Source: an uncultured bacterium (GTDB lineage: Bacteria > Patescibacteriota > Microgenomatia > Levybacterales > UBA12049). From it: DNA of 64,000 nt. The notes beneath the pieces are model-generated. The model did no database searches, was not told the DNA's origin, and was given only the letters and a program-made list of their open reading frames with translations. Every line of letters starts with the position of its first letter. Position 1 is the stretch's first letter. The stretch covers positions 2,679 through 66,678 of the forward strand of contig CAWGXL010000008.1 in assembly GCA_963826535.1 (NCBI GenBank), in the 5' to 3' direction. The position numbers were made by a program, and so were the translations under genes. This document shows positions 1-61,874 of this stretch, piece by piece.

Positions 1-300
1 GACATAAAGAATTTTGATACTCATTGTCCTATATACTACAGAAAAGAAATACTAAAAAAAATTAATGTTGATTGGAATAAACCGCATGGCTATTGCATAA
101 AATCTATGTATTGTTATTTGGCAGGAATTGAAGGAACAGAATATCCGGATCTGAAAATCAGGAATTGTTTAGATGAAGAAAAAATAAAAGAACTGATTGC
201 AGGGAGGGAATATTTTTCAACGGGGAACCATGCTATCAATAGACCGATGATTAATATTTTAAATAGTCTTTATCCTGAAAAAAGTAAATATGAAATATAA
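1..300 (+). CDS. C-terminal fragment of a hypothetical protein whose start lies upstream of the window; possibly part of the glycan-modification cluster
   Basis: Frame 1 is open from base 1 to TAA at 298-300, with no start codon inside the window. Confidence 0.35.
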   Translation, partial: DIKNFDTHCPIYYRKEILKKINVDWNKPHGYCIKSMYCYLAGIEGTEYPDLKIRNCLDEEKIKELIAGREYFSTGNHAINRPMINILNSLYPEKSKYEI

Positions 301-369
301 AGAGATTGAAGTTATAAATAATCAATTTAAACATCCCATACGCCAAGTGGTTATGATTTTAATAGTAGG

Positions 370-1098
370 TTGTTTAATTGGTGTTGCCTTAAGTGCCGTA
401 GCATTCTTAATTGCGAAGGTTTCGCATTTTATAGGATTATGAATCATAAAGACTGGTTAGATAATGAATATAAATTATGGGTAGAAGCCCTGCAAACTTC
501 TACAGTATATAATTTCAAAGAACATCGACAGGTAAAAAGAATGTTAGGAGAAGTTGACGGTAATTTATTCTTTATTGGCTTTTTAAATAAAGACTTATAT
601 AATACTTTGGTTGAAATAGATAATATCGGTCGGTTACATAGTTACTATTTATCCGGGGCTTGTATTCGTATGGTTTATTATGCTCAAAAAGTATTAAAAT
701 CAAATCCTAAAAGCATTTGTGAAATAGGCGGAGGCGTTGGGCAGTTTTACGCAGTGCTACGGGCTTTAGGATATGAAGGGCGTTACTACATTTATGATCT
801 TCCAGAAGTGAAGAAATTCCAAAAGAAGTATTTACAGGAAGTGGAGAATATGACCGGGCTCAAACTTCCTTTGGTAAAAAGTAATTATGAAATGTGTTTA
901 AGTTTTTATGCTTTAGGTGAATTTGATGATGCAACAAAAGAGTGGTATATAGAAAATGTTGTAAATAAATGTGAACATGGTTTTGTGGTATGGAGTGCTC
1001 ACAGTGGGGCAAGTAATGAGGTAAATTTTAAACACAATCTTATTATAAGGCCTGAGAAGCCGCTAACTTTAGAAAATAATTTGCAAATTAGATGGTGA
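370..1098 (+). CDS. class I SAM-dependent methyltransferase (putative sugar O-methyltransferase)
   Basis: Motif I ICEIGGGVGQFY (ExGxGxG); the true start may be the Met at 442. Confidence 0.55.
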   Translation: MFNWCCLKCRSILNCEGFAFYRIMNHKDWLDNEYKLWVEALQTSTVYNFKEHRQVKRMLGEVDGNLFFIGFLNKDLYNTLVEIDNIGRLHSYYLSGACIRMVYYAQKVLKSNPKSICEIGGGVGQFYAVLRALGYEGRYYIYDLPEVKKFQKKYLQEVENMTGLKLPLVKSNYEMCLSFYALGEFDDATKEWYIENVVNKCEHGFVVWSAHSGASNEVNFKHNLIIRPEKPLTLENNLQIRW

Positions 1099-1117
1099 AT
1101 GAAAAAGCTAAACCCCT

Positions 1118-1681
1118 TTGGAAAACATGGACGCACATATAGAATTTATAAATGAGTTATTTGATTATAAGAACTTCCTAAAATATAGCAATACTTTAAT
1201 CGAGACGGGTTGTGCATGGGGAGATGGAGTGCAACGGGCTTTAGATGCAGGATTTAAAAAAGTGATAAGCATTGAGGCCAGTAATAAGTATTTTATTCAT
1301 TCCAAATCGAGATTTAATTCTAATGTAAGTATTTTACTTGGCGAGTCTAAAAAAGTTTTGCCTAAAATACTAAAAGGGAAACCATTAGTATTTTTTTTGG
1401 ATGCTCACCCTTCCGCTACGGATAGTTATGGGTATACAGAATGGGCAGCTACACAAGCAAATATCCAGGACAATATTATTAAGGCGGAACTTGGAATAAT
1501 CTTAGCCGACTATAACAAGCATATAATTATAATTGATGATATGCAGGGCTTAGATGAGTTTTCGCAAAGGTATATTGATATGATTTTAAAGGTTAATTCT
1601 GATTATCAGTTTAAATTCTATGATGAAAATTTAAGCGGCAATAAGTTTTATAAATCTAAAATATTGGCAGCGATTACATAA
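1118..1681 (+). CDS. FkbM-like (Methyltransf_21) SAM-dependent methyltransferase
   Basis: LIETGCAWGDG ... KVISIEASNKYF fits the FkbM-family N-terminal pattern. Confidence 0.5.
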   Translation: MENMDAHIEFINELFDYKNFLKYSNTLIETGCAWGDGVQRALDAGFKKVISIEASNKYFIHSKSRFNSNVSILLGESKKVLPKILKGKPLVFFLDAHPSATDSYGYTEWAATQANIQDNIIKAELGIILADYNKHIIIIDDMQGLDEFSQRYIDMILKVNSDYQFKFYDENLSGNKFYKSKILAAIT

Positions 1682-1688
1682 ATAAAAA

Positions 1689-1711
1689 ACCGCCTTACCT
1701 TGGATAAGGCG
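1689..1711. terminator. perfect 8-bp stem-loop (ccgcctta / taaggcgg) after the methyltransferase gene, possible terminator
   Basis: Inverted repeat read directly; an A-tract lies upstream and there is no T-tract downstream, so the hairpin is bidirectional or weak. Confidence 0.35.
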
Positions 1712-1785
1712 GGACACGGCTATATTTCAACTTCCGTGATTTTAATGAATAGTAGATCCCTCGCCAAGATTTACAAATATAGTAA

Positions 1786-3192
1786 ATGAAATTATCTTTT
1801 AGCAAATTAGGGAACTACGGGCGTTTCGGGAACGGATTATTTCAAGTGGCAAGTGTTTTAGGAATGGCTACATACAAAGCCGAAGCCGTATTTCCCGAAT
1901 GGAACTATGAAAAATATTTCGTAAAACTTCTGCCTCATGGTGAACAAGTAAAAAACCAGGTAATAGAGAAGCACTTTCATTATCATGATTGGGAGCTTAC
2001 AGAGGATAGTGATTTACTTGGTTACATGCAATCAGAAAAATATTTTGCATGGATAGAAGATAAAATAAAAGAGCAATTTACCTTTAAACCGGAAGTGCTG
2101 CAATCTGTAAAAGATAAATTTCCAAACCTGTTTGATAAAGAAGTTATTTTAATACAGATCCGAAGGACTGATTATGTTGGTTGTCCTCACTACTGGCAGT
2201 TACCAGTAACATATTTTATCCGGGCTCTCATAGAATATTTTCCCAATTACCAGGATTATAATATTGTTTTTATTAGTGATGATATTGCTTATGCCAAAGT
2301 ACATTTCGAATGTTTACCTAATGTTACGTTTGCAGATATACCGGATTATGAACAGATGGCACTTGCTACACTTTGCACACATTTTATAATTGCAAATAGT
2401 TCCTTTGGATGGTGGGCAGCATGGTTAGGTGAAAAACCCAATTCTAAAGTAATACATTCAGGCAGACTTCATGCAGGCAAGCTCTTGGAAAAATCTAATG
2501 AACAGGATTATTACCCTGAAAGATGGCTGGAATTTAAACGGGAAGATTATAAAATTGATTTAAATGATGTCACATTTACTATCCCGGTTTTTTTTGATCA
2601 TTCAGACCGCAAGCAAAACTTAGATTTATCTGTGTGTATTTTACAAACAAACTTTGAAACTAATATTACTATAGGAGAACAGGGTGGGACTAAGTTTGAA
2701 TATATGAGCAAGTGGTTTAAATATATTCATTTTGATTTTCCATACTTTCATCGTACAAAGATGCTTAATGATATGGCTACTGCTGCAAATACGCCTTATT
2801 TAGCCAATTGGGACGCAGATGTTATAATACCACCTTTCCAGATTTATCTGACTGTAGAGAAGCTAAGAAAGGGCAAAGACATGGTATTCCCATATGATGG
2901 ACGTTTTGCAAGGTTACCTCGTAAGGAATGGTTTAAGCCTATTGAGAAAATTCTTGACATAGGCGCAATAGGTGATACAGAACCTAAAGGAAAAAGGGGT
3001 CGTCCTGTTCCCGAAGGTTCGGTAGGAGGCGCAGTATTTTTCAACAAAGAATCGTTCATTGATGGGGGCATGGAAAACGAAAATATGATAAGTTTTGGAC
3101 CTGAGGATGGGGAGCGCAATGACCGTTTTGCAATATTAGGTTTTGATAAAGACAGGGTGGAGGATGCCTCTATCATATTGATCATTGGGTAG
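1786..3192 (+). CDS. two-domain glycosyltransferase: N-terminal GT11 alpha-1,2-fucosyltransferase-like domain fused to a C-terminal GT-A/galactosyltransferase-like domain
   Basis: GT11 motifs GRFGNGLFQ, IQIRRTDY (HxRRGDY-like) and ANSSFGWWAAWL; the C-terminal half carries the acidic GPEDGERNDR motif. Confidence 0.6.
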   Translation: MKLSFSKLGNYGRFGNGLFQVASVLGMATYKAEAVFPEWNYEKYFVKLLPHGEQVKNQVIEKHFHYHDWELTEDSDLLGYMQSEKYFAWIEDKIKEQFTFKPEVLQSVKDKFPNLFDKEVILIQIRRTDYVGCPHYWQLPVTYFIRALIEYFPNYQDYNIVFISDDIAYAKVHFECLPNVTFADIPDYEQMALATLCTHFIIANSSFGWWAAWLGEKPNSKVIHSGRLHAGKLLEKSNEQDYYPERWLEFKREDYKIDLNDVTFTIPVFFDHSDRKQNLDLSVCILQTNFETNITIGEQGGTKFEYMSKWFKYIHFDFPYFHRTKMLNDMATAANTPYLANWDADVIIPPFQIYLTVEKLRKGKDMVFPYDGRFARLPRKEWFKPIEKILDIGAIGDTEPKGKRGRPVPEGSVGGAVFFNKESFIDGGMENENMISFGPEDGERNDRFAILGFDKDRVEDASIILIIG

Positions 3193-3260
3193 GGCCTGAT
3201 AGCTCTCCACGAAATCCGTTTTTCAATTCAAATCATCTTGAAAAGGATAAGATACATACA

Positions 3261-3971
3261 ATGACTTCTGATGAATTAAGACTTTATGTTGATACCTGGC
3301 ATTGGCGACACAAATACACGAGTAATTATTATAAGAGAATAGGATCCGGGAGTGTTAAAAGTGCCAGTGAAGTTTTCAAAGAGTTAAGAAAACATATTAG
3401 GTTTAAAACAATTATAGACATTGGTTGCGGTATAGGTGAGTGGAATGATGGCAATCCAAACTATTTTGGAGTTGATTATAATATACCAAGGAAAAGTTTA
3501 ATGATAGACACTAAAAATTATATAGATATTGATCTTGAAAAAGATGATGCTGTAAGAAATAAAATATTATGGGCAACAGGAAAAGAAAAATTTGATTTGT
3601 GTTTATGCCTGGAAGTCGCGGAACATATCAGCGAAGAAAGATCAGATATTTTAATTGAAATGTTGTGTAATTTATCGGATAAAGTTTTATTTGGTGCAGC
3701 AATACCAAATCAGGGAGGTACGGGTCATATTAATGAACAATGGCAGACATATTGGGCTGAAAAATTTGCATCTAATAAATTCTATCCTTATAAAACAGAT
3801 ATCAGAAAAGCGTTCTTTAATAATGAAAACGTAGAAATGTGGTATAAAAACAATATGATCTTATTTACTAAAAAAAAATTTAAAATAGATTACCAGTTAA
3901 ATTTTGTGCATCCTGAAATGTTTACTTCTTGTATTCAGCATTATAAGAATCAGTTAAAACAGGTAGTTTAA
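3261..3971 (+). CDS. class I SAM-dependent methyltransferase
   Basis: Motif I IIDIGCGIGEW; post-I acidic motif LCLEVAEHI. Confidence 0.55.
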   Translation: MTSDELRLYVDTWHWRHKYTSNYYKRIGSGSVKSASEVFKELRKHIRFKTIIDIGCGIGEWNDGNPNYFGVDYNIPRKSLMIDTKNYIDIDLEKDDAVRNKILWATGKEKFDLCLCLEVAEHISEERSDILIEMLCNLSDKVLFGAAIPNQGGTGHINEQWQTYWAEKFASNKFYPYKTDIRKAFFNNENVEMWYKNNMILFTKKKFKIDYQLNFVHPEMFTSCIQHYKNQLKQVV

Positions 3972-4326
3972 TTTCTAATTCTTTGCCTGTTAAAGCAAAG
4001 TAAAGGTTTTGTAGTTGATGTAGGTATTTAAGTTCAACCCCTTCCATTGAACCATTAAAACTAACTTTAAACCCGTTATCTGTTTTATCTAAGTCTATTT
4101 CATTATTACTAAAATCACATTGTAATCCTTCTGGTTTAAATCCGCATCCTTCTAATATTTCAGGTGTGAGTGGAATGGGATGAACGTGATCTTGAATAAA
4201 TTCATTAATTAAATAAAAAAAACCGTCTTTTACAGACTGTTTTGATATTTTATCAACCTTAATCCAATTATCATTTATAATTGTTGTAATCCAATTCCCT
4301 ATCCGTAATTCTTCTGCTTGTATCAT
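3922..4326 (-). CDS. hypothetical protein, member of a duplicated family (paralog at 7702-8094)
   Basis: Shares ELRIGN, HPIPLTPEILEGCGFK and YLHQLQNLYFALTGKELE with the 7702..8094 product. Confidence 0.5.
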   Translation of the reverse strand: MIQAEELRIGNWITTIINDNWIKVDKISKQSVKDGFFYLINEFIQDHVHPIPLTPEILEGCGFKPEGLQCDFSNNEIDLDKTDNGFKVSFNGSMEGVELKYLHQLQNLYFALTGKELEIKLPVLTDSYNAEYKK

Positions 4327-4402
4327 ACTTCTAAGATACTAAGTATAAACTTATACTTACCCCTTTTCCTTAGTATTAATTTTAGTCAATCAATTAATTA
4401 TT

Positions 4403-4717
4403 ATGAAAGTAAAAATTATAAAAGATCACTGGACGTATAAAAAAGACGAAGTTATAGATGTGGAAGAAGGCAGGGGTATTTATCTTCTAAAGGTTCATGT
4501 TGCACAAGAAGTTAAAGAGGAACCTGAATTAGATGAGCCGGATGTGGAGCAGGATTGGAACTTGGAAGAACCTAATGAACAGGTTGAATATTTGGCAAAA
4601 GGAAGTGTAGAAGGAATGGAAGATGTTGAATCTGGTAGCGAACCAATGGTAATTAATCCATCCAGTGGCAAACCTGTAACCAAAAAAGCTACAACAACTA
4701 AAAAACGTAAAAAATGA
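4403..4717 (+). CDS. hypothetical phage protein with an acidic middle and a Lys-rich C-terminus
   Basis: ORF of 104 aa opening the structural operon. Confidence 0.4.
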   Translation: MKVKIIKDHWTYKKDEVIDVEEGRGIYLLKVHVAQEVKEEPELDEPDVEQDWNLEEPNEQVEYLAKGSVEGMEDVESGSEPMVINPSSGKPVTKKATTTKKRKK

Positions 4718-5313
4718 ATTACTATATAGAAGATTCAGACCTGGCAAAAAGAAACCAGATAATGAGGATTGGTAGCGGCAGCGAGATTGCTTACAATGCC
4801 GTTTTGGATGTGATGTTTTCGGACGAAGAAGAAACCGAACCTGTTTTGCTTGAAGAGGCTAAAGCCTGGTGCAGGATAGATGTAGATGATGACGATAATA
4901 TAATTGAAGAACTTATTACAGCAGCCCGTATCATTTGCGAGCAATATACAAATATTAGTTTTATTCCCCGGACAGTTACAGCAAGATTGAAAAATGAATT
5001 AGGAGGTATTTACCTTCCTTATGGACCTGTTGTCACGGAGGATGATGATCCTGTAGTTTTTACCGATGATGAAGGCGCGGAACAGGCAGAAGACACTTAT
5101 AAAGTTGTAGGTGTGCAGTTCAAAGCAATAAAAACACCTTTTACAGAAATGACAGCTACTTATTCAGCAGGATTTACAACACTGCCTGCTTCTTTAAAAG
5201 AAGCATTACTTAATCAAATAGATTATATGTACTCTTTTAGGGGTAGTGACAGGTCAGCTAAAATTTCTTCTAATGCCTTAGAAGATTTAAATAAAGTTAG
5301 GAGAGTATATTAA
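4714..5313 (+). CDS. head-tail connector / DNA-packaging protein (gp6-like, Phage_connect_1)
   Basis: EEAKAWCRIDVDDDDNIIEELITAARIICEQYT matches the gp6-like signature. Confidence 0.6.
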   Translation: MNYYIEDSDLAKRNQIMRIGSGSEIAYNAVLDVMFSDEEETEPVLLEEAKAWCRIDVDDDDNIIEELITAARIICEQYTNISFIPRTVTARLKNELGGIYLPYGPVVTEDDDPVVFTDDEGAEQAEDTYKVVGVQFKAIKTPFTEMTATYSAGFTTLPASLKEALLNQIDYMYSFRGSDRSAKISSNALEDLNKVRRVY

Positions 5314-6057: not shown

Positions 6058-6624
6058 ATGGCAGATAAAAAATATACAGAATTAGTTGCAGCTAATTTAC
6101 CACTTACAGGCGCTGAAATTATTGCTTTAGTTCAGAGTGGAGTAAGTAAAAAAACACCTGTATCGAATTTGCCAACAAGCGGAAAGCCAGTTTCTGCAAG
6201 TGTATCAGGTAGTGATTTTACAACTACTTCCAATGTAGCAGCAAATGTTACCGGGCTTTCCATTGCCGTATCAGCTAATAGAAAGTATAGGGTTTTAGCT
6301 TCACTTAATACAGGTTGCAATAGTACAGGAGGTATAAAAATTGGTTTTAATGGTCCTGCAGGGAGTGCAATACTAACAGGTAGTTGGGTAGGGTCAGCAA
6401 CATCGATTTCTAATAACCAACAACTTAAATTTACCACTATGGGGACTCTTAGTGGTACAGCTTTTAATAGGGTTAATTCCGCTAATGGAATAGTAACATT
6501 TATAGGGTATATTACAACATCAGTAACGGCTGGCAATATTGTTATTCAGGTTGCAAGCAGTACAGATACTGAAACATCAACAGTTTTTATAGGAAGTACG
6601 TTTGATTTAACCGAAGTACAATAA
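6058..6624 (+). CDS. hypothetical beta-rich structural protein
   Basis: Ser/Thr/Gly-rich 188-aa ORF within the head-tail module. Confidence 0.4.
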   Translation: MADKKYTELVAANLPLTGAEIIALVQSGVSKKTPVSNLPTSGKPVSASVSGSDFTTTSNVAANVTGLSIAVSANRKYRVLASLNTGCNSTGGIKIGFNGPAGSAILTGSWVGSATSISNNQQLKFTTMGTLSGTAFNRVNSANGIVTFIGYITTSVTAGNIVIQVASSTDTETSTVFIGSTFDLTEVQ

Positions 6625-7296: not shown

Positions 7297-7734
7297 ATGC
7301 GCTCAGTTAATTTCCCTTTAAGAAAAAAGTACTATTCTTTACTTACCGGCATTACTTATAATGATGTATTAGTGCCCTCATTTTATCAAAAAGCTCCAAA
7401 TGATTTGGTGACCGAAAATTATATAGTATTTGGAGAAATAAGTAGTAACGATACTTCAAGTAAGTACAAGGCAGAAACCGAAACTTCAATTAGATTAACA
7501 ATACATACTTATAAAAGTATTTATAATTCCGGCGAATCTGCGGATTCAATCGCTAATGAAATATTTGCAAGAGTTTATCCGAATGGCCAGGTTAATCATG
7601 ACCTTTCGGAAGATAGCTTGCAAGTTGTAAATACAAGGTTAAGTTCTGATTATACACAGAATTATAATATAAATAACGAAAGAGAATATATTGACCGACA
7701 CTTAACATTTACTCACATTATTTTCCATCAATAA
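7297..7734 (+). CDS. hypothetical protein (possibly tail terminator-like)
   Basis: Sits between the gp10-like and major tail genes. Confidence 0.35.
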   Translation: MRSVNFPLRKKYYSLLTGITYNDVLVPSFYQKAPNDLVTENYIVFGEISSNDTSSKYKAETETSIRLTIHTYKSIYNSGESADSIANEIFARVYPNGQVNHDLSEDSLQVVNTRLSSDYTQNYNINNEREYIDRHLTFTHIIFHQ

Positions 7735-8094
7735 GTTTACTTCTAATTCTTTGCCGATTAAAGCAAAGTATAAGTTTTGTAATTGGTGCAAATATGTAAT
7801 ATGAATAATCCTATCATGGGTTCCTTCATAATCTATATGAACGTAATAAAAATCAGTATCCAACGAAAGATTTGGGATGGAATAAATACCAAAATCTTTA
7901 TTACACTTAAACCCACAACTTTCAAGTATTTCAGGTGTGAGTGGAATGGGTTTTATATGATCAAATACTTCAATATCTCTTTTTCCTGATTTAAATTCAA
8001 TAGATATACCATTCTCAAAAACCTCTTTTATAGTACAACTATTAAATAGTGCAAATACACAATTTCCAATCCTTAATTCATTTGCTTTTATCAT
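7702..8094 (-). CDS. hypothetical protein, paralog of 3922-4326
   Basis: Same conserved blocks as 3922..4326, encoded antisense to the structural operon. Confidence 0.5.
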   Translation of the reverse strand: MIKANELRIGNCVFALFNSCTIKEVFENGISIEFKSGKRDIEVFDHIKPIPLTPEILESCGFKCNKDFGIYSIPNLSLDTDFYYVHIDYEGTHDRIIHITYLHQLQNLYFALIGKELEVNLLMENNVSKC

Positions 8095-8175: not shown

Positions 8176-8610
8176 ATGGCACAACGGAATTTAGATGCAA
8201 CTAATTATGGACTTTTCATTGATCCTGCAGGGGGAACAGACTACAGTATGATAGTTTGTCTTATCTCACAAACACTTAACCGAACTACTGAAACTCTGGA
8301 CTCAGGCTCTAAGTGCGGAGTATCTTCAGGCGCTGGCAAAAAATCAGCAGACGTAAGTTTTGAAGGTGTTTTAGCTCTTGATCCTGATTCGGGTAACATT
8401 TCAGGTTCAGGGCTGCATGATTTGTGGGATGCTTCAACTGTTTTTGGGTGGAAAATTGGCAGGCTTGTCCCTATTGCCGGTGATGTAACTTATTCAGCTA
8501 CCGGGTATTTAACGAGCTTGAGCGATACTTACCCTATCGGTGATGGTACCTTCTCAGGTGCTTTTGCAGTATCAAGCAATATAGTTAAGGTAGTAGAGGC
8601 TGAAAGTTAA
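8176..8610 (+). CDS. putative major tail (tube) protein
   Basis: Position immediately before the chaperone and tape measure; Gly/Ser-rich, about 144 aa. Confidence 0.45.
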   Translation: MAQRNLDATNYGLFIDPAGGTDYSMIVCLISQTLNRTTETLDSGSKCGVSSGAGKKSADVSFEGVLALDPDSGNISGSGLHDLWDASTVFGWKIGRLVPIAGDVTYSATGYLTSLSDTYPIGDGTFSGAFAVSSNIVKVVEAES

Positions 8611-8955: not shown

Positions 8956-9272
8956 CTGATTTATTTGAGTTGCATAAATTCTTTTTTGGTGTTTTAGGGC
9001 TTAGCGAATATGAATATTATACCAATTCCCCTTATACAAATTACTGCAAAATAAAAGGGTATGAAGATAAGCAGGAAAGACTTGCATCAATGCTTCGTGT
9101 AGCTTCATACCGCATCCATCAAAGCCTCGTTCAGAAGCCGCTTAATATTAAAGAATATTGGCCTTTGCCCTCTGATAAGATACCACAAGTTCAAAGATAT
9201 ACTGATAAAAAAGAGCCTTTGATAAGCAGGGAGTTGTTGGCGCAAATAAAGAAGGCTCATCATCTCACATAA
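8931..9272 (+). CDS. -1 frame extension of the tail assembly chaperone (G-T-like product via programmed frameshift)
   Basis: The A9 run at 8924-8932 (A AAA AAA) lies in frame 1; the -1 frame is open from 8931 and continues into the 8970 ORF up to the tape measure start. Confidence 0.45.
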   Translation, partial: KQTKKDRITDLFELHKFFFGVLGLSEYEYYTNSPYTNYCKIKGYEDKQERLASMLRVASYRIHQSLVQKPLNIKEYWPLPSDKIPQVQRYTDKKEPLISRELLAQIKKAHHLT

Positions 9273-11602
9273 TGGAAGACTTAAAGGTAGGTATAGGCGT
9301 AGATATAAACGGGCTGCTTACCGGAATGGCAAGGGCCAATAAGTCTTTGCAGGATTTCAAAGACCAGGCTGGAAGATTTAAAGGAGCACTGGATAAAGCT
9401 ACTGATCCAACTTCAATAGCAAGATTAACCAGGGCTTTAGATGCAGCTAATGCTAAGATAAAGACAATAGGTGGTGCGGGACTAAGTGGATTAAATAATC
9501 TATCAAAATCTTCTAACACAGCCGGATTTGCTCTAACAAACTTAGGCCGTGTGGCACAGGATGCACAGTTTGGATTTGTTGGTATAGCCAACAACCTTAA
9601 TCCATTACTTGAATCATTTCAAAGATTAAATAAAGAAAGCGGAAGCACAAAGGGTGCACTTAAAGCTCTTGCAGGCTCTGTTATGGGAGCGGGAGGTATA
9701 GGGCTTGCACTCAGTCTTGCTATTCCTATTATCGGTTTTATGACTTCAGGTTTCGGAGCCTGGACAAGGGGGTTGACAGGAAATAAAGCCGCATTGGATG
9801 CAACAGCCAAATCAGCAAAAAAGGTAACCGAAGAAATAGAATCGTTAAAATCGGTAATGGATATTATCGGTGAATCTACAGCTTCTGTTCAGGGGAATAT
9901 TGCTGTAGTGAATGTTTTAGCAGCAACAATTTTAGACACTAATAAATCTTATGAAGAAAGAAACAGAGCACTAAGAGAATTAAAGAAAACAAATGAGGCT
10001 TATTTTGGAGACCTAACCCTTGAAGCCTCTAAGTTGGCTACACTTACAGGGCTTGTAAATGAATATACACAGGCACTTACTCAGCAAGCTGTTATTAAAG
10101 GATTTGAGGGTGGGATTTCAAATATTACGCAGGCAATTTTTAATCAGCAAAAAGTTGTTAAGGATGCGAATAAAGTATTAGTAAGTGCACAAAGAGATGT
10201 AGGGGAAGAAATTGCAGCCGCTACTAAACAAGGGCCGGCACAGCTTGCAAGATTATATGCACGAATTGCGGCCGGTGCTACTGATGCAAGCGGCAAACTT
10301 AAAGACGCTAATGAAGAATTAGCTAAGCAAAATAATATAGCAAATACTCTTACCACACAATACAGTGATTTGAGGAAAGGAATTCAGGATGCTGTTACTG
10401 CTTCTTTAGGATTCAAACCACTAACAATTGATAAGCCAGAAGGCGCGGACAAAGCAGCTAAAGAGATTGAGACTATAAATGATGTGCTTGCAAAAATGAG
10501 GGCCGAGTTAGTGGTGCTTAATAAGATTGAATTAACCTTTGGCACAGATGAAACACAAAATAAAATAAAGCTTCTTGAAAAAACTATTGAAGAGTTATTT
10601 TCAAAATTCAAGTTAGGGACTAAAAGCCCATACATCATAGGGTTAGAATTTGAGATAGCAGAATTTAAGCTAACAGAATTCAGCAATAAGATTTTAAAAG
10701 GTGATAGAACATTAACAACGACTATTCCTACAGAAATACTTTTTGTTATTAATGAACGTAAAGCAAGGCAGGAATTAAGAGAAAAACTTTTACCATTTTC
10801 TGATTTGCCTCAAATACAAACAGAGCAAAAAGTAACGATTGATATAAATCCATTTATAAATACTGGTGATTTAGATAACGCTGCAAAGGTGGCATTTATA
10901 AAAGGGCAAGGTATAGGAACAGCATTACAGAATGGAATAAAAACATCTATTGAAGGATTAATATTACCAGAATTAAATGAAGCCTTTGATATTGCAAAAA
11001 ATGTTGAAAGACTAAACCAATCGATAGCAGATAATTTAAAGGTTGGATTAATCGATGCTTTAGCAGGAATTGGGGAAGCAATAGGAAGTGCTATTGCTGA
11101 AGGTGGCGATTTAGGGAAGGCAATATTTGGTAGTTTATTTCAGGTTATATCACATGGCCTAAAAGAGATGGGAAAGGCAATGGTTGCTTTAGGTACTGCA
11201 AAAATTTTCATTGAAAAATTCAAATTTGCTCCCGGTATAGTAACTGTTACTGCCGGTATTGCAATAATTGCTTTGGCTCAGGCGCTACAGGCATCTATAC
11301 CAAAGTTTGCTGAAGGCGGTCCCGTTTCCGGTTCAGGAAGGCCTGATTCAATTTTAGCACGGCTTTCACCAGGAGAGTATATTATCAAAGCTGACACAGT
11401 AGACCGTTTCGGCACACACTTTTTTGATATGTTGAATAAAGGCATTATACCTCCAAGAATGAATACAGGAGGCAGTGTAAGTGGCGCAAATATAGGAGGC
11501 GGACTATCTCATGAATTAGTTGTAGCAGATGTTAAAATTAAAGGCTCTGATTTGCTTTTAGTTTTTGATAGGGCAACAAACTCACGTAGCAGAAATGGAT
11601 AA
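9272..11602 (+). CDS. tail tape measure protein
   Basis: 776-aa Ala-rich, alpha-helical protein with internal hydrophobic segments, directly downstream of the chaperone. Confidence 0.8.
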   Translation: MEDLKVGIGVDINGLLTGMARANKSLQDFKDQAGRFKGALDKATDPTSIARLTRALDAANAKIKTIGGAGLSGLNNLSKSSNTAGFALTNLGRVAQDAQFGFVGIANNLNPLLESFQRLNKESGSTKGALKALAGSVMGAGGIGLALSLAIPIIGFMTSGFGAWTRGLTGNKAALDATAKSAKKVTEEIESLKSVMDIIGESTASVQGNIAVVNVLAATILDTNKSYEERNRALRELKKTNEAYFGDLTLEASKLATLTGLVNEYTQALTQQAVIKGFEGGISNITQAIFNQQKVVKDANKVLVSAQRDVGEEIAAATKQGPAQLARLYARIAAGATDASGKLKDANEELAKQNNIANTLTTQYSDLRKGIQDAVTASLGFKPLTIDKPEGADKAAKEIETINDVLAKMRAELVVLNKIELTFGTDETQNKIKLLEKTIEELFSKFKLGTKSPYIIGLEFEIAEFKLTEFSNKILKGDRTLTTTIPTEILFVINERKARQELREKLLPFSDLPQIQTEQKVTIDINPFINTGDLDNAAKVAFIKGQGIGTALQNGIKTSIEGLILPELNEAFDIAKNVERLNQSIADNLKVGLIDALAGIGEAIGSAIAEGGDLGKAIFGSLFQVISHGLKEMGKAMVALGTAKIFIEKFKFAPGIVTVTAGIAIIALAQALQASIPKFAEGGPVSGSGRPDSILARLSPGEYIIKADTVDRFGTHFFDMLNKGIIPPRMNTGGSVSGANIGGGLSHELVVADVKIKGSDLLLVFDRATNSRSRNG

Positions 11603-31434: not shown

Positions 31435-31530
31435 TATTTAATACGTAAAATTCATAAAGCTCTAATTATTAGAGCTTTTTAGTGTAAAATAGTGTAATAT
31501 TTTGCGAAAAAGTGGTTTAAAAGGGTACAT

Positions 31531-31557
31531 TTGTTTTAGTAAAGTTTTAGTCATTGA
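31531..31557. repeat. second pair of TTTTAGTAA-like repeats overlapping the integrase promoter region
   Basis: ttgttttagtaaagttttagtcattg; a TTG...TAcaTTTG Bacteroidetes-type promoter motif at 31502-31533 is also visible. Confidence 0.35.
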
Positions 31558-32714
31558 CAAAATACACCCTTAAATTACTGCTTTACACCTATCAGGTAAA
31601 CACACAAGGGCTATTCCCTATCTATATAAGAACAACAATAAACCGCAAAACTTCCTATAAAGCTACAGGGCATTTTGTAAGCAAAAAAATGTGGGATGAA
31701 AAGAATAGCCAGGTTAAAGCCGGTCATCCGAATGCTGAGTTAATTAATGCTCACCTTTCATTTACTAAGACAGAATGGGAGAAAAAAATTGTTACTACTC
31801 AACTTAAGGGAACTGATTTAACAGCAGCAGAATTGAAAGAAAGTTTTATAAGTGATAAGCATAATATTTTTCATTATGTTGAGGGATTTATTAAAAGATT
31901 AAAAGGTAAAAAATCTAAAGCCACTTTAGAAAACTATAAAAAACATTTGCTGAAGCTTGAGACTTTTAATAAGAGCCGGGCACTTCAATTTGAAAGTATA
32001 GACGCAAATTTTTTGCATAAGTATGAAACCTGGTTAAGAGAAAACATAAACTTCAGAAAAGCAGATAGTACAAATTATATCCATGCTATTTGGAAAACTT
32101 TTAAGACCTGGTTTAATGCTGCAAAGAAAGAAGGTATAATAAGTAACTACCCTTTTGACCAGTATGAGAATCCTGTTTATGTTTCACCGGATAAGGACTA
32201 TTTAACAAACGAAGAATTAAAATTGTTTGAAGATTTTGCGGATGAATCTTTGGATCTTATTTTAAAAGAGAGTGCAGTTTATTTTTTATTCGGTTGCTAT
32301 TCAGGATTAAGAATTTCAGATTGGTATCAGTTCAAATTTGATAAGCATGTAAAAGGAAATAAAATAAGATTGCGTCCGGCAAAGACTAAACACAAATGGG
32401 TAGAGATGATAATAAGCAAACCTTTGCAAAGAAATCTTTTAAGGATGCAGCAAATACCAATTCAATTAAAGGAGCAGACTATAAATGAAAAACTAAAGAT
32501 CATAGCCGCTAAAATAGGTATCAGCAAGCATTTAACTACGCATTCATCTCGTCACTCGTTCGGGATAACCATTTGTCTTGCTAACGGTCTTTCAAGTGAA
32601 ACAACAGCAGAATTAATGGGAATAACATTAGATACTTTTGTAAAAAATTACTCTCAAATAACTCAATCAAAAATAGATCATGAAACAAGTAAGGCCTGGG
32701 AAAAATTAAATTGA
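31554..32714 (+). CDS. int: tyrosine integrase (site-specific recombinase)
   Basis: N-terminal arm-binding-like LFPIYIRTTINRKTSY, catalytic HSSRHSF and LMGITLDTFVKNY (Tyr); a TTG start is inferred. Confidence 0.75.
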   Translation: MTKYTLKLLLYTYQVNTQGLFPIYIRTTINRKTSYKATGHFVSKKMWDEKNSQVKAGHPNAELINAHLSFTKTEWEKKIVTTQLKGTDLTAAELKESFISDKHNIFHYVEGFIKRLKGKKSKATLENYKKHLLKLETFNKSRALQFESIDANFLHKYETWLRENINFRKADSTNYIHAIWKTFKTWFNAAKKEGIISNYPFDQYENPVYVSPDKDYLTNEELKLFEDFADESLDLILKESAVYFLFGCYSGLRISDWYQFKFDKHVKGNKIRLRPAKTKHKWVEMIISKPLQRNLLRMQQIPIQLKEQTINEKLKIIAAKIGISKHLTTHSSRHSFGITICLANGLSSETTAELMGITLDTFVKNYSQITQSKIDHETSKAWEKLN

Positions 32715-49878: not shown

Positions 49879-50136
49879 ATGGAAGAAATAATGGGAGAAG
49901 AGAAAGACGGTAAAACTGCAGCATTCGCAATCCTGGCTGCATTACGGGCGAAAGCAGCCAAAGGTGACGTAAGGGCAGCAGAGATGCTAATGAACAGGGG
50001 GTATGGTCTTCCTAAGCAACATATAGAACATTCAGGCAGCATAGAAACACCAATAATATTTAAACTTGATGACAAGTTCAGAGAAGATAGTCTTAACGAC
50101 CCCGGTGTTCCAAAAAAACTTGGCGGCATACCTTAA
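49879..50136 (+). CDS. terS: terminase small subunit candidate (C-terminal part)
   Basis: In-frame region 49786-49878 upstream encodes NDPRINKEGRPKLP (GRPK motif typical of TerS N-termini); located immediately before TerL. Confidence 0.4.
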   Translation: MEEIMGEEKDGKTAAFAILAALRAKAAKGDVRAAEMLMNRGYGLPKQHIEHSGSIETPIIFKLDDKFREDSLNDPGVPKKLGGIP

Positions 50137-51244
50137 TCCGAAATATAATGTTATTTGTGACGAAGGTGGTAGTAGATCAGGTAAGACATTTGGGATAATC
50201 CAACTTTGTGTTGGCATAGCCGGCAATGAACCAAACAAAAGAATATCAATAGTGTCTCATTCATTACCTCATGTTAAAAGGGGGGTATTAAGAGATTTTA
50301 AATTGATCATGCAGGAAATTGGTTGGTGGTATGAAGAACAATGGAGTGCGACAAACTTTATTTATACTTTTAAGAATAGCAGTTATATAGAATTATTTGG
50401 TTTAGAGGATGAATCTAAAGCAAGAGGACCAGGTAGGGATATTCTATTTGTAAATGAAGCTAACCTGATAACTAAAACTTTATTTGATCAGTTGGCAATG
50501 AGGACAACAGGTAAAATCTTTTTAGATTGGAATCCTGCTGACTTTAATTCATGGTGTTATGAGTTGGCCGATGATCCAAAGAATAAAAGAATACATTCTA
50601 CCTACAAAGACAACATTCACAATTTAAGCCAATCGCAAATAGATTACATAGAAGCCTATAGAAATTTACCTGATGACTTCCTTTGGAAAGTTTACGGGTT
50701 AGGAGAAAGAGGAGCAGCCAAAGAACTAATTTACACTACCTGGAAATATTATACCGATGATCCGCTTAATGGAGATGTTTTTTACGGTTTAGACTTTGGA
50801 TATACTAATCCTTCGGCAATGGTAAAAGTAACGCATTATGAAGGCGCTAATTACGTGCAGGAGGTATTATATCAGTCTTCATTAACCGTACCGGAAATGA
50901 TTAACCGAATTAAAAGTTTAGGTATAGGCAAAAGTATAATTTATGCTGATTGTGCAGAGCCTAAAACTATTGATGAGATTTATAAAGCCGGGATAAATAT
51001 TAAACCAAGTGATAAAGATGTGTGGGCAGGTATTGTAGGAGTAAAATCATATCCACTTTATATAAAGAAAGGTTCAGATAATTTAATAAGAGAATTGCAG
51101 GGTTACAAGTGGAAGAAAGATAAAAACGATAATATAACTGAAGAGCCGGTTAAAGCTGATGACCATTTAATTGATGCGTTACGTTATGCAATATTTACAA
51201 ACCTTGTAACACCAAAGCTGGTTTATTCAGATGCAAGATATTAA
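50066..51244 (+). CDS. terL: terminase large subunit (PBSX/Terminase_3-like)
   Basis: Walker A-like VICDEGGSRSGKTFGII; FVNEAN; the start is possibly a TTG near 50119. Confidence 0.7.
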   Translation: MMTSSEKIVLTTPVFQKNLAAYLNPKYNVICDEGGSRSGKTFGIIQLCVGIAGNEPNKRISIVSHSLPHVKRGVLRDFKLIMQEIGWWYEEQWSATNFIYTFKNSSYIELFGLEDESKARGPGRDILFVNEANLITKTLFDQLAMRTTGKIFLDWNPADFNSWCYELADDPKNKRIHSTYKDNIHNLSQSQIDYIEAYRNLPDDFLWKVYGLGERGAAKELIYTTWKYYTDDPLNGDVFYGLDFGYTNPSAMVKVTHYEGANYVQEVLYQSSLTVPEMINRIKSLGIGKSIIYADCAEPKTIDEIYKAGINIKPSDKDVWAGIVGVKSYPLYIKKGSDNLIRELQGYKWKKDKNDNITEEPVKADDHLIDALRYAIFTNLVTPKLVYSDARY

Positions 51245-51577: not shown

Positions 51578-53062
51578 ATGGGTGTATTTGACTTCTTTAA
51601 AAAAGATAAGGTTATAAAAGACTTGTCTGCCCAGGTTAAAGCATTACAACAATATAATACCAATAATTTTCTAAGATTTAATAATCTTAACCGCAACATT
51701 GCTCTATTCCCTGAATGGGATATACATACTAACTCTGAGCGTTACGCCACTACTGATGATATTTATTCTATTGTTCGTATGCTTGCCACTACTGCAGCAA
51801 TGATACCTATTTATGCTTACCAGGTAGTTGATGAGGTGGCACAAAAGAAACTTAACAGAATAAAGCAGCCACATAATAAACCATATGAAGTAAAAGCTCT
51901 GCAGGTAAAAGCATTAGAAGAACTACCAGGTGATGACAGGGTTGAAATGCTAATGGAGAACCCTTGCGAATATAAAAGCAAGTTTGAGTTTTATGAGGCT
52001 ATTTATACCTTTCTTTTTTTATATGGTGAAGCATTTATATTAAAAGAAAGGCCGGTTGTAGGTGTTAACTCAGGGCTTACAGTATCTCTCCACCCTTTAT
52101 ATCCCCAGAACATTATTTTGAAAGTAAGTGGTGATTTACCACGTAGAATAACAGGCTATGACTATAAAGTAAATGGAGTTACTATTTATGAGAATTTACC
52201 TGTAGAAGATATAATACACCTGAAGTATTTTAATCCAACAATGGATTATTTGGGTACCGAATTAAGAGGACTTTCACCTTTACAGGTTTTAGCTAAAAGA
52301 TTAGGTAGAATGGATGCCAACCTTAATACATCTGTTGCACAGATGCAAAATGGAGGTGTGCAAAAAATTGTGTGGGATGAAAACGATACCGGTGTTCCAT
52401 TTACTCAGGATGGTAAAGAGGTAACAATTGCAGGAGCAAGGAAAGATAATTTTTATAGGTTCCTGAAGAACCCTGGTAATTATGGGGCTCCATTCTTTGC
52501 AGCTGGCAAAATGGGTGTTATCGATATTGGCAGCACACTTGATGAAATGGGGATTTTAGAAATAGGTAACATAGATTTTAAGAAGTTATGTAATGCTTAC
52601 GGTACTTCTGATATACTTTTTAATTCAGATGTTGCCAGTACTGAGAGCAATGTAACTGTAATGGAGAAAAGGACTTATACCAATACAGTTTTACCAAATG
52701 TTTACAGGGTAAGGGATGCCTTAAAGGCCGGATTGTTGGAAGACTTTGAAAAAGGAAGAAGATACGTTAAGATAGATGAAAACGGTAATGAAAATCAGGT
52801 AGTAATAGAAGGGGATGGTGTTAAGCGGGATATACGGGAAGATATTTCAGAGATACATTCTTTGCAGGAAGATATGGGTAAGATGGTAGCATGGATGCAA
52901 CAGGCCTGGTGGATTTTACCTAATGAAAAAAGGTTAATGATGAAATATGATGAAATAGATAATCCATTGTTTAATGAACCGTTAATTCCTACAGGTATGC
53001 AAACTACAGAAGATTTTCAGAGCGTAGAGCCCTTAGATATTGTTACTGAGGAAGGAAATTAG
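51578..53062 (+). CDS. portal protein
   Basis: 494-aa ORF between the terminase and the Mu-F-like gene, about the size of an HK97/SPP1-type portal. Confidence 0.55.
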   Translation: MGVFDFFKKDKVIKDLSAQVKALQQYNTNNFLRFNNLNRNIALFPEWDIHTNSERYATTDDIYSIVRMLATTAAMIPIYAYQVVDEVAQKKLNRIKQPHNKPYEVKALQVKALEELPGDDRVEMLMENPCEYKSKFEFYEAIYTFLFLYGEAFILKERPVVGVNSGLTVSLHPLYPQNIILKVSGDLPRRITGYDYKVNGVTIYENLPVEDIIHLKYFNPTMDYLGTELRGLSPLQVLAKRLGRMDANLNTSVAQMQNGGVQKIVWDENDTGVPFTQDGKEVTIAGARKDNFYRFLKNPGNYGAPFFAAGKMGVIDIGSTLDEMGILEIGNIDFKKLCNAYGTSDILFNSDVASTESNVTVMEKRTYTNTVLPNVYRVRDALKAGLLEDFEKGRRYVKIDENGNENQVVIEGDGVKRDIREDISEIHSLQEDMGKMVAWMQQAWWILPNEKRLMMKYDEIDNPLFNEPLIPTGMQTTEDFQSVEPLDIVTEEGN

Positions 53063-55282: not shown

Positions 55283-55770
55283 GTGAAATATTTCTTCTTA
55301 GATAGCCGCATTGACGAAGTTCTTTTAAACAAGTTTTTCCAGTTTGCCAATGATAATTCAGATGATGATTGGACTATTTCAATTTGGAGTACCAGCGGCT
55401 TAACAACTTTATCTAAGGCAATACTTTATATAATCAATTCAAGGAAAGAAAAGGTTACTCTGATATGCGATGGACATATAGTGCTGCTTTTGAAATATTT
55501 TACCATGCTAAGTGTAAAAAAGTTCTTACCAGAGAGTGTAAAGGTATCGTTGATTTATCAGCGGGGGATATTAGATTGTCACGTAACGGAAAAGCGAATG
55601 ATCCTGAAAATCTTTGTGTTATGAAAAACTGGCAGGAAGATAAAACATCTAATAAGTGGGTTAAGAAAATACTTGTCAGCGAAGAACTTAAAAAGTTTAA
55701 TAAAGGCGAAGATGTTTATTTGACAACTAAGCGGATGAAAGAAATATTCCCTGATGCAGAAATAATTTAA
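55283..55770 (+). pseudogene. possible ClpP-like prohead protease, frameshifted near 55478-55482 (1-bp indel)
   Basis: SIWSTSGLTTLSKAILYIINSRKEKVTLICDG resembles the ClpP core; the continuation ...KCKKVLTRECKGIVDLSAGD lies in another frame. Confidence 0.3.
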
Positions 55771-56420: not shown

Positions 56421-56789
56421 TAAAGGTTTTTCGTTATCCATTAGATTGTTTCAAGTTGGTAGAATAGTATCCTCTTGTAATACCATATTTAAGAAATTCT
56501 TTCGTAGTTAGATTCCAATTTTCCTTTTGGTAGTTATAAGATAATTATCACAACCTTCAATCATTTTCATTTTTATGAATTTCCATAAAGATATAATTAA
56601 ATTTTAATTACCTACCTAATATTGTTAGTGAATTTTTAACTAAAGATGTTGGTAGGAAGAAAAAGGTTAAAAATGGATACGAAGTAAAAATCATGAATGT
56701 TAAATCAAAGAAGATAAAGAAAAAGAAAGATGGAAAGGAAATCTATAAACTTTGAATTAAAGGACATTGACAAAGGCAAACGTATGGCA

Positions 56790-61868: not shown

Positions 61869-61874
61869 CGGCCG

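Follow-up and report, generated by a model that had tools for sequence, protein, structure and literature searches.

A cluster of genes for glycan-modifying enzymes lies at the start of the window, the whole 64,000-nucleotide stretch of DNA analysed here, upstream of phage head-tail genes, and raises two questions: whether these genes belong to the phage or to a bacterial chromosome, and what their products modify. The initial annotation left open a phage-borne glycosylation and O-methylation system, acting on virion proteins or on the surface of the lysogen, and host DNA abutting a truncated prophage.

Gene content of the locus

The glycan enzyme genes at 1-4330 are all on the + strand and tightly packed at the coordinates first reported (Table 1), and hydropathy profiles reveal no hydrophobic segments in any of the cassette enzymes, indicating that they are soluble. 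The initial annotation had recognized a GT11 fucosyltransferase joined to a second glycosyltransferase (GT) domain, and this is borne out: domain 1 of ORF 1786-3192 matches Pfam Glyco_transf_11 (E 1e-18, above the gathering score) and phrog_2644 (E 2.5e-43), and domain 2 matches phrog_15655 (E 3e-28) together with weak GT2 and Glyco_transf_7C matches. The three class-I SAM methyltransferase (MT) units that it listed are also present, but the third is not a separate gene; it is a domain of the GT gene, which encodes one three-domain protein of about 728 aa and as sequenced is divided between two ORFs, 1786-3192 and 3261-3971. Searches with Methyltransf_23, which had been proposed along with GT11, gave matches to 3261-3971 (E 4.5e-5) and 439-1098 (E 2e-3).

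Table 1. Features of the locus and of the distal end of the phage sequence (window coordinates)
Feature	Position	Strand	Remarks
Stealth_CR2-like putative sugar-1-phosphate transferase, 3' end (C-terminal 99 aa)	1..300	+	Cut by window start
50-aa ORF, one predicted transmembrane helix	290..442	+	Direct sequence reading
MT 1, NanM-like putative sugar O-methyltransferase, 219 aa (ATG at 439)	439..1098	+	
MT 2, class-I SAM methyltransferase fold, 184-187 aa	1118..1681	+	
GT11 fucosyltransferase, GT-A glycosyltransferase and class-I MT in one gene	1786..3971	+	Split by frameshift
phrog_10066 protein, 134 aa	3922..4326	-	Antisense to late genes; E 6e-22
104-aa acidic protein, basic Ser/Thr/Lys tail	4403..4717	+	Between cassette and adaptor gene
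Head-tail adaptor (gp6-like)	4714..5313	+	Phage_connect_1 E 1e-8; phrog_442 E 9e-21
HK97-type prohead protease, gene start	56730..56787	+	Truncated where low-GC phage sequence ends

In the three-domain enzyme, the GT11 domain (aa 1-250) is followed by the GT-A domain (aa about 255-500) and then by the class-I MT. GT11 enzymes use GDP-fucose as donor, and the GT11 domain keeps the RRxD and NSxxxWW motifs of the family. Alignment with homologues of 700-745 aa, the length of most of the best matches listed among 1298 metagenomic homologues at E <= 1e-5, shows R126-R127-x-D129 and D343-x-D345 to be invariant. The model of domain 2 (pLDDT 87) matches GT-A enzymes (K4CP, TarP, GtrB and RmlT) and also the fucosyltransferases FUT8 and WrtF.

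A 1-nt frameshift interrupts the gene at about 3162-3166, where two tblastn HSPs in different frames join (3162-3165) and the conserved segment GCLYHIDHWVGPDSSPRNPFF sits in the other frame; one inserted G restores a 728-aa protein. If the frameshift were real, the cassette would be decaying cargo, partly inactive in this phage, because with the break near 3163 the GT-A domain loses an HxxH segment that is almost invariant, and the MT domain is cut off. This is improbable, since the remainder of the gene is intact with its motifs conserved, and at least two other phage genes, MuF and the ClpP-like ORFs at 55283-55770, are frameshifted too, as is an Actinoplanes-like kinase in the high-GC part of the window. 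These other broken genes point to indel errors in the assembly, of which the frameshift near 3163 is probably one.

MT 1 matches the NCBIfam model TIGR04371 "putative sugar O-methyltransferase NanM" (E 3e-10, 40 bits against a cut-off of 44) and, weakly, Methyltransf_2 (E 0.03), and in L011 and L173 the gene immediately upstream of the GT fusion encodes a homologue with 55-59% identity. MT 2 has no Pfam match, and its assignment as a class-I MT is confirmed by the predicted fold: the best Foldseek PDB matches of its AlphaFold2 model (pLDDT 90) are COMT (catechol)-type and other O-methyltransferases (E about 1e-6). Its invariant residues, E29-T30-G31...G37 and E53, would fit SAM-binding motifs I and II. 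None of its 45 homologues is named, and the family stands beside the GT fusion in 11 of the fetched loci.

The truncated ORF at 1-300 matches phrog_7999 (E 1e-3) and is 35-40% identical to full-length proteins of 230-259 aa in L003, L009 and L010; these relatives carry Pfam Stealth_CR2 at E 3e-7, which is below the gathering score (precomputed match, L009). When the fetched viral ORFs were searched with an iterated profile, homologues turned up in 27 loci, and by way of the full-length homologues the ORF is judged to be an additional, putative Stealth_CR2-type member of the cassette. The 50-aa ORF that follows has ATGA start/stop overlaps on both sides and a Kyte-Doolittle maximum of 2.89; it has no homologue among the fetched loci and therefore may not be a real gene.

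Position in the phage genome and recurrence in other phages

The locus had been placed directly upstream of a connector gene. It is upstream and co-oriented, but the adaptor, with which the head-completion and tail module opens, begins at 4714 rather than 4403, and the minus-strand phrog_10066 gene and a 104-aa ORF intervene. The latter has no Pfam match, a weak PHROG match and no homologue in the fetched loci. The former has a paralogue inside the tail module (7702-8094; phrog_10066, E 8e-24; 41% protein identity), and its homologues adjoin the cassette in L003 and L010. The initial annotation also held that the locus occupies the place of the capsid genes. This did not stand: the genes for terminase, portal and MuF, with the first part of the protease gene, are found at 50-56.8 kb, at the opposite end of this phage contig. 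That is the arrangement a permuted circular map would give, so the capsid gene simply lies outside the window. The protease start, MERKSINFELKDIDKGKRMA, resembles the N termini of the L008 and L024 proteases; at 56787 the phage sequence stops, GC rises from about 0.3 to about 0.77 within 100 bases, and unrelated Actinoplanes-like DNA follows. An integrase (31554-32714) marks the phage as temperate, and its host is probably a member of the Bacteroidota.

That host polysaccharide genes adjoin a truncated prophage here, or that mis-assembly has put host DNA beside tail genes, could be argued from the fact that the window begins inside a gene, from the lack of the capsid genes expected upstream of the adaptor, and from the visible assembly defects, the frameshifts and the abrupt junction at 56787. 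However, the GC and trinucleotide composition of the locus match the remainder of the phage (rank 25 of 53) and are uniform across it, and no tRNA or att-like repeat is present at the locus. No att site or host boundary was found between 3971 and 4403, where, by the initial annotation, a phage edge would have refuted a phage-borne locus; 3922-4326 is instead filled by a phage gene family. These observations led to rejection of this reading, which is also opposed by the terminase, portal and protease start at the other contig end and by the same cassette in the equivalent place in L019 and L024, and which is extremely improbable. The cassette is very probably phage-borne and builds a glycan.

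Comparison with related phages, likewise suggested at the outset, showed the three-domain enzyme in or next to the head module on many phage contigs that have little else in common. Among 23 phage contigs carrying it that were surveyed for context, at least 16 have it co-oriented with adjacent head genes, at several different positions (at least seven insertion points within head modules); in L013, L023 and L025 the cassette borders replication genes, and three more loci were counted in neither context. Stealth-like or TagF-like genes and extra O-methyltransferase genes are frequent companions. All on the same strand, the orders are TerL, portal, MuF, protease, major capsid protein (MCP), then GT (L024); GT, MT, then adaptor and tail genes (L019); portal, MT, MT, GT, then protease and MCP (L015); the cluster, then portal, protease and MCP (L002, L003, L009, L175); TerL, a Stealth-like gene, GT (L009, L010, L175); TerL, a TagF-like gene, GT (L173); GT, then terminase (L011, L170); and GT, then portal (L014, L018). 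L024 and L019 together reproduce the layout that we infer for this phage, with the cassette in the operon for head morphogenesis, flanked by the major capsid gene and the adaptor gene. The adaptor-to-tape-measure stretch is syntenic with L008 and L019, and in L008 the MCP is followed directly by the adaptor, with no cassette.

The GT11 and GT-A domains are commonly fused or adjacent in IMG/VR contigs. In bacterial genomes (the best 80 loci from GTDB), the two-domain form with GT-A was seen in L090 and L132 only, at least the former having phage-type neighbours, and the others have the GT11 domain alone. The three-domain enzyme thus appears, on sequence comparison, to be largely restricted to viruses, and the near absence of the GT11+GT-A fusion from bacterial genomes counts further against host DNA. 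Across the fetched phage contigs, identity to the GT of this phage ranges from about 32% to 72% and contig GC from 32 to 54%, which argues for a conserved acceptor and not a host-specific one.

Possible targets of the glycan

The part of the initial proposal that stands is therefore the phage-borne system, supported by its recurrence in phage head modules. The explanation preferred here, tentatively, is that this head-operon cassette makes a short fucose-containing, O-methylated glycan, possibly phosphate-linked, on virion proteins. The cassette would be transcribed late, along with the head genes; the Stealth-like enzyme (TagF-like in other phages) would prime or link the sugar through phosphate, the GT-A domain would add a hexose, possibly galactose, the GT11 domain would cap it with alpha-1,2-fucose, and the MTs would O-methylate the sugars. 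The acceptor would be a virion protein assembled in the cytoplasm, such as a capsid, decoration or tail protein, and a glycan coat of this kind could shield the particle or alter its surface properties. Membrane partners of the Gtr, flippase or polymerase kind are absent from the locus, which is counted in favour of a virion target. Against it, the capsid gene of this phage falls outside the window, no Ser/Thr-rich or C-terminal acceptor tail is found on the capsid proteins of cassette-bearing relatives, three loci have the cassette beside replication genes, the core gene is frameshifted as sequenced, and the phage, being temperate, could practise lysogenic conversion. Unrelated cargo genes, too, often settle in late operons, and the classical role of Stealth and TagF-like enzymes is the polymerization of capsule and teichoic-acid-type surface polymers. 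To our knowledge, mycobacteriophages and giant algal viruses are the only viruses for which sugar-coated particles produced by virus enzymes have been demonstrated to date.

It is possible, though less probable, that the targets are lipid-linked O-antigen, capsule or Bacteroidota O-glycan precursors, to which the soluble enzymes, working on the cytoplasmic side, would add fucose, methyl groups and phosphate-linked sugars and so modify the host envelope, either in the lysogen (seroconversion, superinfection exclusion) or during infection, when progeny would be kept off debris. The integrase is consistent with this, as are the nearest bacterial GT11 relatives (about 40% identity), which are single-domain proteins in Flavobacterium and Chitinophagaceae genomes, the Stealth and TagF-like partners typical of surface-polymer synthesis, and the resemblance of the GT-A fold to TarP and GtrB, both surface-glycan modifiers. 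Distant cyanophage GT11+GT-A pairs sit in LPS-like islands, and a role in altering the surface of the host cell has been suggested in the literature for such cyanophage cell-wall genes. However, the cassette is embedded in and co-oriented with late head genes, at many positions in many phages and not near att or integrase, bacterial polysaccharide loci almost never contain the fused enzyme, and GtrA/B/C, flippase, polymerase and initiating transferase are all missing from the locus. Nor can lysogenic conversion be the general role of the GT11+GT-A pair, which is found in strictly lytic phages as well.

Hypermodification of DNA, in which the GTs and MTs would decorate hydroxymethylated phage bases and so evade restriction, is very unlikely. 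GT11 enzymes transfer fucose to glycan acceptors, the MTs resemble sugar or small-molecule O-methyltransferases, and head genes are the most frequent context. Among the replication ORFs tested, of which RecT and NinG alone were identified, there was no hydroxymethylase of the thymidylate-synthase type. In favour of this role, the cassettes of L013, L023 and L025 border helicase, RecT or DNA-methylase genes, and DNA-glycosylating phage GTs are described in PMC12619734 (citing Pyle 2024).

Comparison with known systems

Uncultured phages in large numbers carry such a set of enzymes, nearly always beside head genes, and their particles may be sugar-coated as a result. The N-terminal domain of the three-domain enzyme resembles the bacterial GT11 alpha-1,2-fucosyltransferases of O-antigen and capsule loci (Pfam PF01531) in scoring above the gathering threshold and in the RRxD and NSxxxWW motifs, and is about 40% identical to the Flavobacterium and Chitinophagaceae proteins, but these are single-domain proteins of about 280-310 aa from chromosomal loci, whereas the phage protein has two extra catalytic domains. 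Seroconverting prophages (GtrABC of P22 and Shigella phages; TarP of S. aureus prophages) are likewise temperate with GT-A-type enzymes, and TarP and GtrB are structural neighbours of the modelled domain 2; here, however, GtrA/GtrC-type membrane components are lacking and the genes lie in the late head operon instead of forming an independently expressed conversion gene. T4-like, lytic cyanomyoviruses (S-SM2, S-SSM7, P-TIM68 and S-SCSM1) have adjacent GT11 and GT-A genes with 25-33% identity to the two domains. These are separate genes in large LPS/heptose-pathway auxiliary islands near pstS, phoA and hli, without a fused MT and outside head modules, a location that counts against a virion target.

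In mycobacteriophages, according to PMC11600133, PMC12619734 and PMC10877033 (citing Freeman 2023), GT and O-methyltransferase genes modify capsid and tail-tube proteins. Mycobacteriophages of clusters F, O and others share with the present phage cytoplasmic, phage-encoded GTs and an O-methyltransferase, but infect Actinobacteria and have an experimentally established function, whereas the present candidate system probably has a Bacteroidota host. The likeness is by kind of enzyme: the GT11/GT-A/MT triple fusion and the Stealth-like or TagF-like partners are features of the present system, and no C-terminal acceptor tails are seen on the capsid proteins of its relatives. In chlorovirus PBCV-1, the capsid N-glycan is built by A064R (GT-GT-methyltransferase) and A111/114R (GalT-XylT-FucT) (PMC7826918). 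A064R resembles the phage enzyme, in architecture only, as one soluble virus-encoded protein with two GT domains and a sugar O-methyltransferase domain. It belongs to a giant virus of eukaryotes, its GT domains are rhamnosyltransferases, the domain order differs, and the fucosyltransferase domain sits in the partner enzyme, A111/114R; like the chlorovirus enzymes, the phage enzyme would act without host glycosylation machinery.

Position of the glycan-enzyme genes in the phage genome

The low-GC portion of the window (bases 1-56787, GC 0.30-0.46 in 1-kb windows) constitutes a temperate tailed phage whose genes, mapped on a circle, follow the order terminase, portal, MuF-like protein, protease, a gap, the glycan locus, adaptor, and tail. 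The prohead protease gene is interrupted where the phage sequence stops, and the encoded N terminus, MERKSINFELKDIDKGKRMA, is similar to the proteases of two related phage contigs, L008 and L024. The major capsid gene is placed in the gap between the protease gene and the glycan locus, outside the window sequence, and the capsid genes have therefore not been replaced by the glycan locus, at whose position the initial annotation had expected them. Two of the locus proteins have 100%-identical database entries, both on a single 66,951-bp NCBI/ENA contig, and the simplest account of this, and a probable one, is that the phage contig extends about 10.2 kb leftward beyond window position 1. An exact 41-mer from the window start was absent from the viral, metagenome, and genome contigs searched, and queries by exact sequence with three window proteins and with the two identical entries likewise gave no record.

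The alternative that the locus is host DNA abutting a truncated prophage, with a boundary between 3971 and 4403, is ruled out by several properties of the region. Bases 1-3971 do not stand out from the remainder of the phage in GC content or trinucleotide composition (rank 25 of 53 windows), the locus contains no tRNA, the only repeats that it shares with other phage regions in excess of chance are those of a pair of phrog_10066 paralogues, and the interval proposed to hold the boundary is occupied by one of this pair, a minus-strand phage gene whose paralogue lies in the tail module. The proteins encoded by the two phrog_10066 genes are 41% identical, and both genes are antisense in the late operon, an arrangement like that of morons, which are independently expressed cargo genes. 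Homologues of phrog_10066 also adjoin the glycan cassette in the phage loci L003 and L010.

At the other end of the window, phage DNA of about 30% GC gives way abruptly to DNA of 70-77% GC in which there are many frameshifts. This part is unrelated to the phage and encodes Actinoplanes-like proteins; a protein database search with its Ser/Thr kinase gave Actinoplanes kinases as best matches (90-97% identity) and no exact match, and the high-GC tail is therefore probably a record separate from the phage contig. Either two records have been concatenated at the junction, or the contig is chimeric.

Features of the glycan locus and of the remainder of the window
Feature	Position	Strand	Remarks
Protein C terminus	1-300	+	Full-length homologues 230-259 aa with Stealth_CR2-like region
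50-aa ORF	290-442		One hydrophobic helix
MT1, NanM-like putative sugar O-methyltransferase	439-1098	+	TIGR04371 E 3e-10, slightly below cut-off
Class-I methyltransferase	1118-1681	+	No Pfam match; AlphaFold pLDDT 90; closest to catechol-type O-methyltransferases (Foldseek)
Predicted antisense small RNA, ~85 nt	within 1680-1806	-	In gap upstream of GT gene; no Rfam match
Bacteroidota-type promoter pattern, match 1	1806-1774	-	One of two exact matches in the window
Terminator-like hairpin	1712-1690	-	Followed by T-run TTTTTTATTT; ~55 nt downstream of match 1
GT11 fucosyltransferase domain, then GT-A domain	1786-3192	+	Pfam GT11 E 1e-18; GT-A domain phrog_15655 E 3e-28
Methyltransf_23-type domain (domain 3)	3261-3971	+	E 4.5e-5
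phrog_10066 gene	3922-4326	-
Head-tail adaptor	4714-5313
188-aa protein	6058-6624		27% Ser + Thr; among head-completion genes
phrog_10066 paralogue	7702-8094	-	In tail module
Major tail protein	8176-8610
Tape-measure protein	9272-11602
Bacteroidota-type promoter pattern, match 2	31501-31533		20 nt upstream of integrase start
Integrase	31554-32714
RecT, helicase/DNA methylase, primase-helicase	38-47 kb
Large terminase	50066-51244
Portal	51578-53062
MuF-like head-morphogenesis protein	53929-54730		Halves: ORFs 53929-54495 and 54440-54730
ClpP/S49-protease-like gene	55283-55770		Resemblance by eye; halves: ORFs 55283-55624 and 55465-55770
HK97-type prohead protease gene	starts 56730		Cut after 58 bases
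High-GC DNA	56780-64000		GC 0.70-0.77 from 56788 on

The enzymes of the locus

As the initial annotation described, the enzyme genes of the locus are co-oriented and tightly packed, all being on the plus strand with overlapping or short junctions. Membrane segments are absent from every locus enzyme, and the sole hydrophobic segment is in the 50-aa ORF. Stealth proteins are hexose-1-phosphate transferases with four conserved regions, CR1-CR4. Among these regions CR2 alone was detected, and only in full-length homologues of the first protein, where it scores 30.9 bits (cut-off 39.4) together with one precomputed and other faint matches; the window holds just the last 99 residues. By profile or fold match, MT1, the product of ORF 1118-1681, and domain 3 are assigned to the class-I SAM-dependent methyltransferases, which have a seven-strand Rossmann-type fold and a Gly-rich motif I; such Pfam scores as were obtained are all under the gathering thresholds. 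Domain 3 also matches O-methyltransferases of the PDB in a sequence-profile search (E 1e-3).

The GT11 assignment was borne out well above the Pfam cut-off (PF01531, 67.9 bits against 23.9, residues 12-247; 75.5 bits for the L003 homologue). Arg126, Arg127, and Asp129 are invariant among 16 sequences and correspond to RRxD, the conserved GDP-fucose-binding motif of GT11, and the fold matches of the domain include FUT8 and WrtF. The N-terminal domain is thus a member of GT11 and a predicted α-1,2-fucosyltransferase. For the second domain, the predicted GT-A fold holds: the model matches K4CP, TarP, GtrB, RmlT, and a Leptospira GT (Foldseek E 1e-6 to 1e-7), and in the 16-sequence alignment Asn341-Trp342-Asp343-x-Asp345 is invariant and represents the DxD metal-binding motif. 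GT2 and Glyco_transf_7C score 17.3 and 12.9 bits in this domain, below the gathering score of about 23, and PF02709 is precomputed for many of its homologues. Searching the PDB with sequence profiles gave no useful information on the GT domains.

The fusion of GT11 to a second GT was recognized in the initial annotation, which counted the third methyltransferase as a separate gene. Homologues of the GT are mostly 700-745 residues long and carry GT11, GT-A, and methyltransferase domains in a single chain. In tblastn, the alignment of a 742-residue homologue breaks into two HSPs at 3162-3165, a conserved linker, GCLYHIDHWVGPDSSPRNPFF...KIHTM, is read in another frame between ORFs 1786-3192 and 3261-3971, and the addition of one G yields a 728-residue protein, so that the two ORFs are, from their sequence, a single gene. 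We think that the frameshift is an assembly indel error, because the MuF-like gene, the ClpP-like ORFs, and the Actinoplanes-like kinase gene are also frameshifted; the splitting of the MuF-like and ClpP/S49-like genes suggests an indel-prone assembly. The less favored alternative is that the three-domain gene carries a real mutation.

A scan for sigma-70 promoters and terminators, a model that is wrong for Bacteroidota, performed no better than chance, and the Bacteroidota-type pattern (TTTG, 17-23 nt, TAnnTTTG) has two exact matches in the window against 4.6 expected. The match preceding the integrase gene is consistent with a Bacteroidota host, with the pattern count not above chance, and the match at 1806-1774, with its strong terminator-like hairpin, predicts an antisense small RNA in the gap before the GT gene.

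Relatives and gene neighborhoods

When bacterial genomes were scanned, one per species, the GT11 domain stood alone in the best 80 loci considered, except in L090 and L132, which also have GT-A, so that bacterial loci with both domains number at least two; L090 has phage-type neighbors, namely portal-like and tail-fiber genes recognized by homology with L016. The closest of the bacterial matches listed are from Flavobacterium and Chitinophagaceae, at about 40% identity. GT11 and GT-A are commonly fused or adjacent in viral contigs. Among the cultured phages searched, only distant, unfused GT11/GT-A pairs were found (25-33% identity), all in lytic cyanomyoviruses, where the pair differs in residing in LPS-like auxiliary-gene islands; a blastn search of cultured phages yielded nothing beyond trivial matches. 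The fused enzyme family appears to be uncharacterized, and the phage collection searched contains no cultured member of it. Three phage contigs of 25-144 kb contain two tandem genes for GT-A domains without GT11, located at about 10000-12000 in L004 and L005 and at 2260-4180 in L006.

The suggestion that the locus is a phage-borne glycosylation system stands as regards its being phage-borne, since in at least 16 of 23 phage contigs examined the cassette shares its strand with head genes and lies no more than about 6 kb from them. It is found between terminase and portal (L009, L010, L175, L173), immediately upstream of portal-protease-capsid (L002, L003, L014, L018) or of terminase (L011, L170/L171), between portal and protease (L015), immediately after the capsid gene (L024), and immediately before the adaptor (L019, which has tail-module synteny with this phage). 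Comparison with related phages, as the initial annotation advised, shows that L024 and L019 jointly reproduce the arrangement inferred here; in L008, a tail-module relative, the cassette is absent and the adaptor directly follows the capsid gene. Replication genes border the cassette in L013, L023, and L025, and three more loci were assigned to neither group. Neighbors were annotated with PHROGs and Pfam, the phages being too diverse for seed HMMs of portal, terminase, and capsid to recover more than a few members. The cassette-bearing contigs range from 32 to 54% GC.

Iterated profile searches of the fetched viral ORFs found Stealth-like genes in 27 loci and homologues of ORF 1118-1681 in 11; MT1 homologues are present in L011 and L173, and a GT4 gene is present in L024. 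Other companions are CmcI-type rhamnosyl O-methyltransferase-like genes and TagF-like CDP-glycerol glycerophosphotransferase genes. The latter accompany the three-domain GT in L173 (2915-3928), L170 (9000-10004), and L009 (7803-8804), lying between terminase and portal in L173 and L009, and hint at a teichoic-acid-like, phosphodiester-linked decoration; the 333-residue L009 homologue has no Pfam match of its own. Homologues of the 188-aa, 104-aa, and 50-aa ORFs were not found in cassette-bearing loci.

Predicted product and site of action

From its genes, the cassette is shown to be phage-borne and mobile and to encode enzymes predicted to be soluble, whose product would be a fucose-containing, O-methylated glycan. 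It has settled repeatedly inside head modules. What we would infer is that the cassette is expressed late and that a virion protein synthesized in the cytoplasm serves as acceptor. Our proposal, to which we give somewhat less than an even chance, is that the three-domain enzyme and its companions constitute a widespread, phage-specific virion-glycosylation module, known from more than 1000 metagenomic members and from no cultured phage. Tailed phages that infect Gram-negative hosts (Bacteroidota and others) would then carry on their heads fucosylated, O-methylated, and possibly phosphate-linked glycans, made by an enzyme whose architecture would have converged on that of A064R, the capsid-glycan enzyme of chloroviruses.

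The main rival is that the cassette modifies lipid-linked precursors of envelope glycans and so would bring about seroconversion or exclusion. It is kept alive by the temperate nature of the phage, by the presence of partners of the Stealth and TagF types, and by the precedent in cyanophages. The seroconversion cassette of the Gtr type consists of the flippase GtrA, the bactoprenol glucosyltransferase GtrB, and the serotype-specific GtrC, all membrane proteins; the locus enzymes are soluble and gave no Pfam matches to GtrA, GtrB, or GtrC. With respect to virion glycosylation, no obvious Ser/Thr-rich acceptor tail was seen on the capsid C termini of cassette-bearing relatives, the phage's own capsid gene being outside the window. 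Glycosylation of DNA by the cassette is unlikely: a base hydroxymethylase of the thymidylate-synthase family was not found in 10 ORFs scanned, mostly from the replication region, where the scan identified RecT, NinG, and an HNH domain and nothing else.

No PHROG or Pfam family matches the 188-aa protein, whose N terminus resembles an anchor for a fiber or appendage, and the syntenic modules of L008 and L019 lack it. It may serve as a decoration or fiber protein, which would make it a candidate acceptor of the glycan.

A large family of multi-domain glycan-building enzymes, conserved in sequence and located in head modules, would suggest that glycan coats are widespread among environmental phages, phages of Gram-negative hosts among them, with possible effects on adsorption, particle stability, grazing, and immune recognition in phage therapy. 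For glyco-engineering, the family could supply soluble enzymes in which fucosyltransferase, glycosyltransferase, and methyltransferase are fused, and it provides a concrete test set in which the enzymes are soluble and candidate acceptors are encoded alongside.

To our knowledge, glycosylation of phage-particle proteins has been shown experimentally only in actinobacteriophages. In systems of the mycobacteriophage type, the glycans are covalently attached to capsid or tail-tube subunits and the acceptor region is C-terminal. The locus shares with such systems its phage-encoded GT and O-methyltransferase genes. Capsid and tail-tube glycosylation in mycobacteriophages is described in PMC11600133, PMC12619734, and PMC10877033, and glycosylation of actinobacteriophage particles is reported to weaken the neutralizing-antibody response (PMC11600133, citing Freeman 2023). 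For the domain architecture, the counterpart is A064R of chloroviruses, a GT-GT-methyltransferase enzyme (PMC7826918).
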